From: a virus
Lineage: Duplodnaviria; Heunggongvirae; Uroviricota; Caudoviricetes
Length of the DNA stretch: 34,781 nucleotides
IMG/VR virus record: IMGVR_UViG_2880361019_000004
Span: 1 to 34,781 of that record
Strand: one strand, 5' to 3'
The notes beneath the pieces are model-generated. The model was not told the origin of the DNA. It ran no database searches and saw only the letters and a program-made list of their open reading frames with translations. The stretch's first letter is position 1, and each line of letters begins with the position of its first letter. The translations under genes were made by a program, and so were the position numbers. This document shows positions 5,139 to 6,998 of the stretch, piece by piece.

Positions 5139-5164
5139 TTCCTGAAAACCTCGGTTTACGGGAA
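5139..5164. other. gix-like invertase crossover site (left)
   Basis: TTCCTGAAAACC-TC-GGTTTACGGGAA: 12-2-12 layout matching the Gin/Hin/Pin site pattern. Confidence 0.7.
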
Positions 5165-5512
5165 ACGGTAAACAGGGCGGCGAATGCTCTGCCATCGGAC
5201 GGCACCGCCGTTGCCGCGAATAGACTCGCCACCCCAAGAAATATTAATGGGGTTCCCTTTGACGGGACGCAGGACATAAACATCACTTCTGGTATAACAC
5301 AGCAGGATGCGGATTCCCGATATATCCAGGATATCAGGCTGGGAGCAGAGAACAGGCAGGTAATGTACGGTGGGGCATATTACTCTGCGTACGGTAATGT
5401 TATGGCAGGCCTGCAGATTGACAGTAAAGTTGATGCTTCAAACGATTTTATAGCATTCAGACCCCTGCAAAAATTAGTCGGAGGTACATGGATTACGGTA
5501 TCTCAGTTATAA
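5162..5512 (+). other. Silent alternative tail-fibre C-terminal cassette
   Basis: Start-less open frame from the left gix site to TAA at 5510-5512; its first ~40 residues ([23 protein letters not shown]...[17 protein letters not shown]) parallel the expressed tail fibre, then diverge; would join in frame after inversion. Confidence 0.65.
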
Positions 5513-5563
5513 ATAGTCAGTAAATAATATATTTTAAAACAGATTTATTTCCAGGAGGATTTT

Positions 5564-6085
5564 ATGGAACTAAAAAATATAACCCGTTATTATCCTGAAA
5601 ATATGCCATATGGTAATAATGTTCAGTATTTCCAGAGTGAAGATGGTAAGGATTTCTACGAATCCCTGCCATTATTCACCAAAAAATATAAACTTTGCAT
5701 AACACCTGACAGCGGCGTTATCTGCTCAATATCACAGGACGCCTCGGCGCTGTATCCTGCGGGGTTTTCTGTGGTTGAGGTCGATGAACTCCCTGAAGGC
5801 ACGGATATTTCAGGAAACTGGAAGTTTGATAATGGCATAATCTCCCGTATTCCGGTTAACTACGCAAGAAAACTGGAAGCAATGCGCCAGTCATATCTTA
5901 ATCAGGCATATGAAAAAATTAATGACTGGAGAACGGAGCTACAACTGGACACCATCAGCGATGAAGACAGAGCAGCACTTACCCAATGGATGGCATACAT
6001 CAGTCAGGTGAAGAAAATGGAACTGCCCGCCATTAAAACAGAAGCTGAATTTAACGCCATTAAATGGCCTGAGCAGCCACAGTAA
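5564..6085 (+). CDS. Tail fibre assembly protein (Tfa/U-like)
   Basis: 173-aa ORF with AGGAGG Shine-Dalgarno; sequence character of the phage tail-fibre assembly chaperone family; lies inside the invertible segment downstream of the silent cassette. Confidence 0.75.
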   Translation: MELKNITRYYPENMPYGNNVQYFQSEDGKDFYESLPLFTKKYKLCITPDSGVICSISQDASALYPAGFSVVEVDELPEGTDISGNWKFDNGIISRIPVNYARKLEAMRQSYLNQAYEKINDWRTELQLDTISDEDRAALTQWMAYISQVKKMELPAIKTEAEFNAIKWPEQPQ

Positions 6086-6088
6086 TAA

Positions 6089-6108
6089 AGAAGGCCGGAA
6101 GGCCTTCT
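6089..6108. terminator. Hairpin between convergent tfa and tail-fibre genes
   Basis: Perfect stem AGAAGGCC/GGCCTTCT with 4-nt loop, between the tfa stop (6085) and tail-fibre stop (6117). Confidence 0.4.
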
Positions 6109-6116
6109 GAATATCA

Positions 6117-6998
6117 TTATATACTTGCAGCCGTCACCCATGCTCCATTTAACAGATACTGCAACGACCGGTAATACACGCCGCCGACGTTATCTGCCGT
6201 ATTCTTACCGACATCCTGTACTTTAATTCCGGTAAGAACATTGCCGCCCCACAGATTCAGATCCCAGCTTTCCCATGTTCCGGGCATATGTGCGGTCACC
6301 GACCCCAGTCTTATGGCGGTTACTGTTCCTGATGAGATAGTGATATCCTGCGTCCCGTCAAAGGGAACACCATTAATTGTGTGGGCATTTGCCAGCCTGT
6401 TCGCGGCAACGGCCGTTCCGTACGATGGCAGAGCATTCGCCGCCTTATTCACCGTTTCCCGTAAACCGACGTTATCGATAAAAGCCCCTTTATCCGGAAT
6501 GTCTGCGCCGTTCTGCTCCCTGCGCAGGTAACGGTTATCACCTTCGCTTTTGCTGTAAACATCCAGATTATTACGGGCGGTTCCCTTATTCTCCAGGTCG
6601 GCGAGATTCTGATCCTTCGCCAGGGCATTAACGTCAGCGGGACCAAGACTGTTTTTTGTGGCAAGCGTCCCCAGACCAAGATAACCACGGGCCAGACGCT
6701 GGGCCTCCGCACCGGCATCAGCAATTTCTTTCAGGTTATTTTTCCGGGAAAAGGCATTCGCAGCGATAATGGCTTTAATGGACAGCGTAAGCTGGTTTAA
6801 CTGCGCCTTATCCGGCTGAATACTGGCTTCAGCCAGAATATTCAGCAGTTCGGCCTGGAGAATATTCAGCCAGTCCTGACCAATCCAGCTGATACCTTTT
6901 TGTCCGTCACCTTCGGTAAACCAGGTGGTGGTATTACTCTGCGCCGGTGCCAGCGCAGGCATATTCGCCACGCCGGAATTATTATCAACATGAAACAT
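6117..6998 (-). CDS. Tail fibre protein (S-like), currently expressed variant
   Basis: 293-aa ORF following the baseplate genes; the reading frame crosses the right gix-like site at the constant/variable junction. Confidence 0.75.
6456..6481. other. gix-like invertase crossover site (right, inverted)
   Basis: TTCCCGTAAACC-GA-CGTTATCGATAA; inner half is the exact inverse of the left site half; central dinucleotide GA is complementary to the left-site TC. Confidence 0.7.

Follow-up and report, generated by a model that had tools for sequence, protein, structure and literature searches.

A Gin-type invertible tail-fibre segment with a single tfa gene in an Sp18-like, Mu-family prophage of Escherichia coli

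The stretch of DNA analysed here, referred to throughout as the window, comprises positions 1 to 34,781 of the IMG/VR virus record IMGVR_UViG_2880361019_000004 (34,781 nt; 34.8 kb), and represents the late and tail region of a Mu-like prophage of Escherichia coli. All coordinates are those of the whole window, and the prophage is read on its minus strand, along which the genes follow in the order gp47 (baseplate J), gp48/YmfQ, tail fibre, invertible segment, Gin-like invertase, cargo genes and com/mom. The subject of this report is the segment that lies between the fibre and invertase genes; it is delineated by two gix-like crossover sites and contains two alternative C-terminal tips for the fibre, termed A and B, together with one tail-fibre assembly (tfa) gene (Table 1). 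The prophage belongs to a family of E. coli Mu-like prophages that includes Sp18 of O157:H7 Sakai, and matching architecture is present in around 200 further E. coli genomes, Sp18 among them, with DNA identities in gin of about 76–94%. The host-specificity region of Sp18 was noted in 2009 by Asadulghani et al. as invertible and 'distinct from Mu', and its host specificity was scored as 'atypical' (PMC2669165). The switch described below is, therefore, a further system of the Gin/G-segment type, from a family in which the invertibility of one member is already in the literature. We consider it very probable that the region functions as a site-specific inversion switch of the Gin/gix type in an Sp18-like Mu-family prophage, and that it exchanges the tip of the tail fibre.

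Table 1. Features of the invertible segment and its surroundings, in window coordinates
Feature	Position	Strand	Description or evidence
DUF826 gene	1744–1998	-	Cargo between the invertase gene and com/mom
684-aa protein	2361–4415	-	SASA sialate O-acetylesterase domain and DUF6645 (domain matches)
Gin-like serine DNA invertase, 190 aa	4501–5073	-	Pfam Resolvase (E = 1.6e-51) and HTH_7 (E = 4.9e-15); PHROG 125 'DNA invertase'
Putative recombinational enhancer (sis)	4989–5051	-	Two Fis-consensus 15-mers, 48 bp apart, in the 5' end of the invertase gene
Left crossover site, gix-like, adjoining the invertase gene	5139–5164		TTCCTGAAAACC-TC-GGTTTACGGGAA; core TC at 5151–5152
Left arm of the extended inverted repeat (about 150 nt)	5144–5292		Encodes the first ~47 residues common to both cassettes
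Silent, start-less alternative fibre C-terminus (tip B, allele B1)	5150–5512	+	Translation; stop codon at 5510–5512
AT-rich 51-nt spacer	5513–5563	+	Between tip B and tfa; AGGAGG ribosome-binding site
Sole tfa gene, 173 aa	5564–6085	+	Pfam Caudo_TAP PF02413 (E = 9e-19, 68.3 bits; cut-off 22.1)
G+C-rich hairpin at the convergence of tfa and tip A	6089–6108		Predicted on the minus strand; likely bidirectional terminator
Tail-fibre gene in expression position, 293 aa	6117–6998	-	PHROG 1833 'tail fiber protein', full length (E = 5e-139)
Right arm of the extended inverted repeat	6328–6476		Arm complementarity
Right crossover site, gix-like, inside the fibre open reading frame	6456–6481		TTCCCGTAAACC-GA-CGTTATCGATAA; core GA at 6468–6469
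Mu gp48/YmfQ-type baseplate wedge gene	6998–7558	-	Pfam Phage_Mu_Gp48; directly upstream of the fibre gene

Crossover sites, fibre tips and invertase

The two 26-bp sites are mutually inverted and enclose about 1.3 kb, as had been proposed in a preliminary description made from the sequence alone, and their 2-bp cores (TC and GA) are complementary. A degenerate 21-nt gix pattern has two matches in the 34.8-kb window, which are exactly these two sites, against an expectation of 0.00 derived from 100 shuffles. The reverse complement of the left site, TTCCCGTAAACCGAGGTTTTCAGGAA, differs from Mu gixR, TTCCTGTAAACCGAGGTTTTGGATAA, at five of its 26 positions, and the right site occupies a position in the fibre gene that is homologous to the boundary of the Mu G segment in S (around codon 176 of the fibre versus around codon 169 in Mu). 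The inverted repeat continues inwards past the 26 bp: arms 5144–5229 and 6391–6476 are 87% complementary, and arms 5243–5292 and 6328–6377 are 84% complementary. Overall, the two arms of the window are 79% identical to each other, a value that reaches 95% among its relatives (STEC299). Patchy gene conversion between the arms is apparent in their inner parts (5170–5206 and 6414–6450) and varies by lineage; positions 5170/5173/5175 and 6445/6447/6450 are swapped between the window and FORC_029, and in JE86-ST05 the right arm has been converted to left-arm sequence.

The start of the fibre gene overlaps the gp48/YmfQ stop. The fibre gene runs across the right site and is thereby divided into a constant part, Sc (6470–6998), and tip A (6117–6469; allele A1), downstream of which there is no tfa. 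Residues 1–198 of the fibre are 47–48% identical to Mu S. On the opposite strand, the start-less frame of tip B begins at the left site; because the inverted repeat runs inwards for about 150 nt, 39 of its first 47 residues are common to the fibre in expression position (the preliminary description had put the common stretch at about 40 residues), after which the two diverge, and tfa is next. When the sequence is inverted in silico at the core dinucleotides, the result is a 299-aa fibre gene, fused in frame, with tfa behind it on the same strand; this bears out the anticipated fusion of the constant part to the alternative C-terminus. Moreover, both fused forms, of the 293-aa and 299-aa types, are present as annotated genes in natural genomes.

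A comparison of the two tips with known receptor-binding domains had been suggested in the preliminary description, and the C-terminus of Mu S/S' provides one. For tip B the relationship is clear, as the last ~70 residues of the tip match the corresponding end of Mu S (residues 435–502 of 5YVQ_A; E = 8e-8). For tip A it is weak, the alignments to the C-terminal domains of Mu S and S' having domain i-E values of 9 and 400, which are not significant alone. In outline, the fibre resembles the Mu fibre minus the ~240-residue middle of its variable part, and the 1.3-kb segment is, in effect, a 'mini G segment'.

Over 184 aa, the invertase shares 74% identity with Mu Gin, and its catalytic motifs, GYIRVSTNDQ and VWKLDRLGRS, are intact. 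In a sequence-pattern test, matches to the Fis consensus (KNNYRNNWNNYRNNM) fall at nt 23–37 and 71–85 of gin, and the consensus positions are matched likewise in the gin genes of Mu, the Sp18 type and Citrobacter braakii; the enhancer region aligns with the 5' end of Mu gin, the mean column identity being 80% over the whole 377-column alignment. The sis enhancer of Mu is located at the corresponding place in the 5' part of gin. The paired sites thus fit a recombinational enhancer of the Gin type, to which Fis would presumably bind.

Several further features accompany the switch. The cargo between the invertase gene and com/mom (1744–4415, minus strand) comprises the 684-aa protein, a DUF1378 gene and the DUF826 gene; a cargo set of this kind (NanS-p-like) is typical of the late regions of Shiga toxin (Stx)/lambdoid prophages, and here it resides within a Mu-like prophage. 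A search of NCBIfam returned no family specific to the fibre, to Tfa or to the esterase. In JE86-ST05 and other RefSeq relatives, the Prokaryotic Genome Annotation Pipeline (PGAP) labels the silent cassette as a pseudogene ('phage tail protein, incomplete; missing N-terminus') and gives the name 'hypothetical protein' to short antisense open reading frames that span the left gix site. Both calls are artefacts of an unrecognized invertible segment, and the consequence for annotation is that the start-less cassette beside the invertase gene should be regarded as a programmed silent cassette, and not as an 'incomplete' pseudogene.

Inversion among relatives and selection on both tips

The evidence on orientation comes from the genome assemblies of relatives, as recovered by megablast against 5,426 complete E. 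coli genomes. The window orientation gave 17 full-length single-piece matches with identities of at least 98.7%, and a query inverted in silico gave five, four of them at identities of at least 99%. The near-clonal genomes of FORC_029 and NCCP 13983 (5,189,944 and 5,189,943 bp, respectively) are identical over the 8.7 kb compared, save for a stretch of 1281 bp in which each is the exact reverse complement of the other, and the breakpoints are confined to 5144–5169 and 6451–6476, within the gix sites. Additionally, DLI.5a, TOE17 and AST46 are strains with two copies each, one in either orientation, and tip B forms the end of the expressed fibre in NCCP 13983, in Sp18-type genomes and in IMG/VR loci. 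At the level of the family, the segment inverts in nature, and it does so at its sites. The preliminary description had named a single orientation coupled with an inactive invertase, or sites that fail to align, as grounds for rejecting a switch; what is seen is an intact invertase, sites that align as inverted repeats, and near-identical genomes that differ in orientation with breakpoints inside those sites.

Flips between genomes could also arise by RecA-dependent homologous recombination across the ~150-nt inverted repeats, the invertase playing no part. Indeed, the arms are long (about 150 nt and 79–95% identical) and bear patches of gene conversion between lineages. However, in the comparison of FORC_029 with NCCP 13983, all of the polymorphic arm positions from 5170 inwards have travelled with the segment; because the exchange lies within the outermost 26 nt, the location of the gix core, recombination along the arms is unlikely, and we regard this route as highly improbable.

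The two orientations are far from equally represented. With the window orientation, in which tip A is in the expression position (A-on), given first, the counts are 17 versus 5 for the window type, 179 versus 22 for the Sp18 type and 15 versus 5 for the IMG/VR loci. The tfa-less, A-on orientation is, therefore, the commoner, accounting for about 82–89% of more than 200 E. coli assemblies, although clonal relationships among many of the genomes mean that these counts are not independent. A fresh Mu lysogen has its segment oriented as in the particle that infected it. On the basis of this rule, the A-on bias suggests that virions with A tips are the ones that infect E. coli.

Selection on the tips was assessed in 10 dissected loci, among which Tfa identities range down to 62%; seven are oriented as in the window and three are flipped. 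Both the A and B cassettes are intact in all 10, and they fall into five allele families with mutual identities of 28–48%, namely, A1 and A2 at the tfa-less position A, and B1–B3 at position B. The ratio of non-synonymous to synonymous substitution rates (dN/dS) is 0.09–0.15 in every sufficiently diverged comparison, with A tips behaving like B tips and synonymous sites near saturation; the remaining computable value, for B2 and based on seven substitutions, is 0.39. Purifying selection acts on both tips, the tfa-less tip included (dN/dS about 0.1). The intact alleles, the dN/dS values and the orientation counts together say that the tfa-less orientation is not a dead state.

Taken together, these observations lead us to propose the following mechanism. 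The Gin-like invertase would recombine the two inverted gix sites at their GA/TC cores, probably with the assistance of Fis bound to the enhancer in the 5' end of its own gene, a dependence that we infer from the paired consensus matches. The constant N-terminal 176 residues of the fibre, homologous to Mu S, are outside the segment, and inversion connects them in frame to either of two C-termini of ~116–119 residues, of which the last ~70–80 residues are the variable portion, related to the distal domain of Mu S/S'. In Mu, this distal domain is both receptor-binding and Tfa-binding; because the alternative tips relate to it, the switch would be expected to alternate host range. That the tips should differ in host range is an inference from the existence of five divergent tip families (28–48% identity) under purifying selection.

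The copy of the prophage in the window is itself a defective remnant. An IS66-family element (22648–24983, plus strand), encoding an HTH_Tnp_1 orfA, TnpB_IS66 and a 512-aa DDE_Tnp_IS66 transposase, interrupts the head-morphogenesis region between the portal gene (24899–26545, minus strand) and the MuF gene (21179–22510, minus strand). At the other end, IS1 (approximately 32675–33430, minus strand; InsB reading frame at 32675–33178 and end sequence near 33430) abuts a host gene for a DegT/DnrJ-family aminotransferase (33624–34781, plus strand), and the early region, with the repressor and transposase, is consequently missing.

A number of points weigh against a switch that is at work in this strain. 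With the early region missing and IS66 inserted, the late genes may never be expressed here. Furthermore, tip A of the window (6117–6330, minus strand) has two private non-synonymous changes and no synonymous ones relative to its closest relatives: a Gly is replaced by Trp in NLGGGN and a Pro by Ser in YYRP, both at positions that are otherwise conserved, and this suggests relaxed selection in a defective copy. The strong bias in orientation (about 82–89% A-on) may mean that inversion is slow, and the natural inversion observed is that in assemblies of relatives. Fibre expression in this strain is, therefore, doubtful, and the term 'expressed', as applied to the fibre here, should be understood as 'in the expression position', as judged from the sequence.

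It is thus quite possible, if not the outcome that we would expect, that the switch is an inert relic in this strain, its orientation having no phenotypic output and the segment either flipping without consequence or being frozen. The truncation of the early side by IS1, the interruption of the head region by IS66 and the two private changes in tip A would all accord with this, as would the frameshifted tape-measure, gpN and com genes of close relatives. Set against these are the intact state in this copy of gin, both gix sites, both cassettes and tfa, and the occurrence of near-identical copies in both orientations.

A defective prophage with a fully intact switch might alternatively have had its segment exapted by the host, with one orientation yielding a fibre-derived protein that blocks the adsorption of other phages. 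There is a precedent in the cryptic prophages of E. coli, in the form of PinQ-driven inversion of the e14 P segment, with StfE2 acting against T2 (PMC12529663). Nevertheless, expression outside the late operon is not in evidence, and the Sp18-like family as a whole looks like an active phage, since Sp18 DNA is efficiently packaged (PMC2669165). Given that a virion function explains the purifying selection, we consider exaptation to be extremely unlikely, and retain the Gin/gix-type switch of a phage family, carried here by a damaged copy, as our interpretation.

A single tfa gene for two tips

Searches of the whole window by tblastn with six Tfa proteins (including that of the window itself, U and U' of Mu, and two of Fels-2) found one tfa, in agreement with the preliminary description, which had pointed to this as a departure from Mu; Mu and Fels-2 each have two. 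The assignment of the gene is further substantiated by matches of its product to PHROG 136 (E = 1e-55) and to TfaMu (5YVQ_B; E = 3.6e-16). A single tfa is likewise present in all 10 of the dissected loci and in 20 of 20 Sp18-family IMG/VR loci; it is the conserved architecture of the Sp18-like family, and no quirk of this copy. By contrast, two convergent tfa genes are found in Mu, Fels-2, a P1-like phage and most of the other Gin-linked IMG/VR segments, and single-tfa segments turn up again in a minority of other lineages, namely C. braakii ATCC 51113 and the IMG/VR contigs L033 and L044. The Mu arrangement, with a separate assembly gene for either cassette (U for Sv, and U' for Sv'), is seen neither in the window nor in any of these family loci.

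The preliminary description went on to state that the current orientation expresses a fibre tip without a tfa in cis. It is correct that no tfa follows tip A, but 'expressed' can refer to position only, and another source of Tfa is possible; in other words, 'no tfa in cis' need not equal 'no Tfa available'. That the A-on state is simply fibre-defective strikes us as very unlikely.

We tentatively prefer, while giving it somewhat less than an even chance, the interpretation of a single Tfa that acts on both tips; in the A-on state, this Tfa would be made from its own signals in the unusually long spacer that precedes the gene. Three observations favour a shared Tfa. Firstly, A-like tips are linked to tfa elsewhere: in a P1-like phage, P2 and an Actinobacillus phage, tips that are 43–49% identical to A1 are followed by tfa with a gap of 0–2 nt, and in C. 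braakii, tfa follows a tip that is 58% identical to A2 with a gap of 69 nt. Secondly, the N-terminal half of Tfa is nearly invariant among loci with very different tips, and this half is the fibre-binding domain according to the passage of PMC9608196 that summarizes North et al. (2019). Thirdly, the spacer ahead of tfa measures 51–110 nt across the family versus 1–12 nt in Mu, P1, P2, Fels-2 and most of the two-tfa segments. Across the 10 dissected loci, no correlation is seen between Tfa type and tip allele, B1 being found with both T1 and T3, and B3 with both T1 and T2.

The evidence on transcription is less accommodating to a shared Tfa. The hairpin at the junction of tfa and tip A, a likely terminator, is found in all 10 loci, albeit with varying sequence, and would separate the two genes. 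A scan of 4400–7100 for consensus sigma-70 promoters returned six sites, all on the minus strand and none upstream of tfa, such that no promoter of this type is predicted for the gene; similarly, a manual reading of the 65-nt intergenic region between gin and gix gave no convincing tfa promoter. The motif of the Mu C-dependent late promoters (TTAT-N6-ATAA, visible in Mu Pmom) is absent from the region upstream of com in the window; this region appears to be rearranged and, as a result, there is no Mu C-dependent motif that could be transferred to tfa. With respect to the spacer itself, a motif common to two spacer types, AAAACAGATTWAT, was considered and rejected, as it has a second match at 5118–5130, upstream of the left gix site, and at least two matches were obtained in 33 of 100 shuffles. 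Motifs of the type AAAACAGA(G/T)T occur on the plus strand at 5114–5130 (upstream of the left gix site), 5536–5548 (in the tfa spacer) and 4436–4449 (downstream of the invertase gene), a number that is within chance.

The same lack of a predicted tfa promoter in the A-on state would be expected if tip A were independent of a chaperone, in which case inversion would toggle between a self-folding fibre (A-on, with no Tfa made) and a fibre that both needs and carries Tfa (B-on). Consistent with this, the 10 dissected loci and the 20 Sp18-family IMG/VR loci all lack a tfa in cis to tip A, and A-on is the commonest state, with tip A under purifying selection. On the other hand, tip A aligns, if weakly, with the C-terminal domain of Mu S/S', and PDB entry 5YVQ pairs Mu S with U; the N-terminal domain of TfaMu binds the fibre, as stated in the relevant passage of PMC9608196. 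Moreover, the nearest tips outside the family (43–49% identical to A1 or, in C. braakii, 58% identical to A2) are all linked to tfa and also have the ADNxGGVYY motif by which A tips are distinguished. On balance, a chaperone-independent tip A is possible, yet rather unlikely.

Tip A might also rely on Tfa that is provided in trans by another resident prophage, tfa genes of the Rac, e14, lambdoid or P2 types being common in E. coli. The nearest phage homologue of the window Tfa, after two records that contain an inserted Mu-like phage of the same family, is indeed from Rac-SA53 (49% identical, full length), and Tfa proteins are modular, with a conserved C-terminal oligomerization domain (PMC9608196). 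Host range would then, however, be hostage to the prophage content of the lysogen, and we deem such a dependence improbable, though less so than a defective A-on fibre.

A single tfa could be adaptive, as opposed to the product of a loss. Either inversion would set both the tip and the production of Tfa (A-on being chaperone-free and B-on Tfa-assisted), or tfa would possess a late promoter within the segment that acts in both orientations. We view this with some doubt, but if the former is true, the family would provide a natural and closely matched pair of Tfa-dependent and Tfa-independent tips that share one fold, and B-on fibres may carry Tfa. As far as we have found, an orientation-independent late tfa promoter inside the invertible segment has not been described in the literature for segments of the Gin type. 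Because the tfa-less orientation predominates, its tip is under purifying selection and related tips in the P1-like phage, P2, the Actinobacillus phage and C. braakii have tfa in cis, we appear to be dealing with a Mu-S-type tip whose assembly proceeds with no chaperone gene in the expressed operon.

The switch itself adds little to what is known, as Gin-type inversion of fibre genes is textbook knowledge and the Sp18 relative had already been flagged as invertible. The modest value of the locus is rather as a compact natural system, consisting of tip domains of ~75 aa and one 173-aa Tfa, for the study of the chaperone dependence of tips and the specificity of Tfa, both of which are relevant to engineering the host range of phages and tailocins.

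Comparison with known inversion systems

The closest well-characterized counterpart is the G segment of Mu. The invertases are 74% identical, the gix site that adjoins gin is nearly the same, the crossover falls at a homologous codon, the constant part of the fibre is 47–48% identical, and the tips relate to the C-terminus of S/S' (significantly for B, weakly for A); the gene order, gp47, gp48, S, segment, gin and com/mom, is also shared. The two also differ in several respects: the window segment spans 1.3 kb versus 3 kb in Mu and has one tfa versus two; its variable parts are only ~116–119 aa, the ~240-aa middle of Mu Sv being absent; the spacer before tfa is 51 nt versus 2 nt; the inverted repeat is about 150 nt versus 34 bp; and esterase, DUF1378 and DUF826 cargo intervenes between gin and com.

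The P segment of e14 with PinE (stfP-tfaP/tfaE-stfE), the C segment of P1 with Cin, and Fels-2 with Fin are likewise serine-invertase switches that exchange the C-termini of fibres. The tail module of e14 also includes a YmfQ/gp48 gene, and each of its cassettes has one tfa, giving two in all. The P1-like phage and Fels-2 are unlike the window in the same respect, with one tfa per cassette, and in P1 the invertase gene additionally reads towards the segment.

Phase variation has been demonstrated by sequencing for the Mu-like prophage of enteropathogenic E. coli (EPEC) E2348/69, where both orientations were detected, 60 ± 8% being forward (Goldberg et al., 2014; PMC4272514). This locus (NC_011601.1, 2749191–2751433) resembles that of the window in having a short, 1.9-kb 'mini' segment after the YmfQ/gp48 gene and a short fibre of 249 aa, and it also has a silent cassette. 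It differs in its two convergent tfa genes, in its e14/pix-type sites (AAACCTTGGTTTGGGAGAA) and in the lack of an adjoining invertase gene; we therefore rejected it as direct experimental proof for the window family, and regard it as a cousin. The E2348/69 prophage ends at a truncated eutC gene, and as there is no invertase beside the segment, inversion there must be driven in trans.

Single-tfa segments are those of C. braakii ATCC 51113 and of L033 and L044, in each of which one tfa lies between two gix-like sites beside a gin homologue. A search of genome contigs with the fibre protein gave eight loci, of which only that of C. braakii was informative (an Edwardsiella locus ends at the contig end). 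In C. braakii (L015, 4001–7871), the cassette that is linked to tfa is the A2-like one (58% identical to A2), and a 472-aa fibre without tfa is in the expression position. The tip families of L033 and L044 are unrelated to those of the window; these two contigs hold the same type of segment in opposite orientations, and their relative L042 has two tfa genes.

The strongest resemblance is to Sp18 and its relatives, which share with the window the single tfa, the tip positions A and B, the gix sites, gin followed by the DUF6645 esterase gene, and the occurrence of both orientations among genomes. Within this common plan, the window and the Sp18 type have diverged, with gin ~76% identical at the DNA level and Tfa 62% identical at the protein level, and they bear different tip alleles, A1/B1 in the window versus A2/B3 in the Sp18 type.

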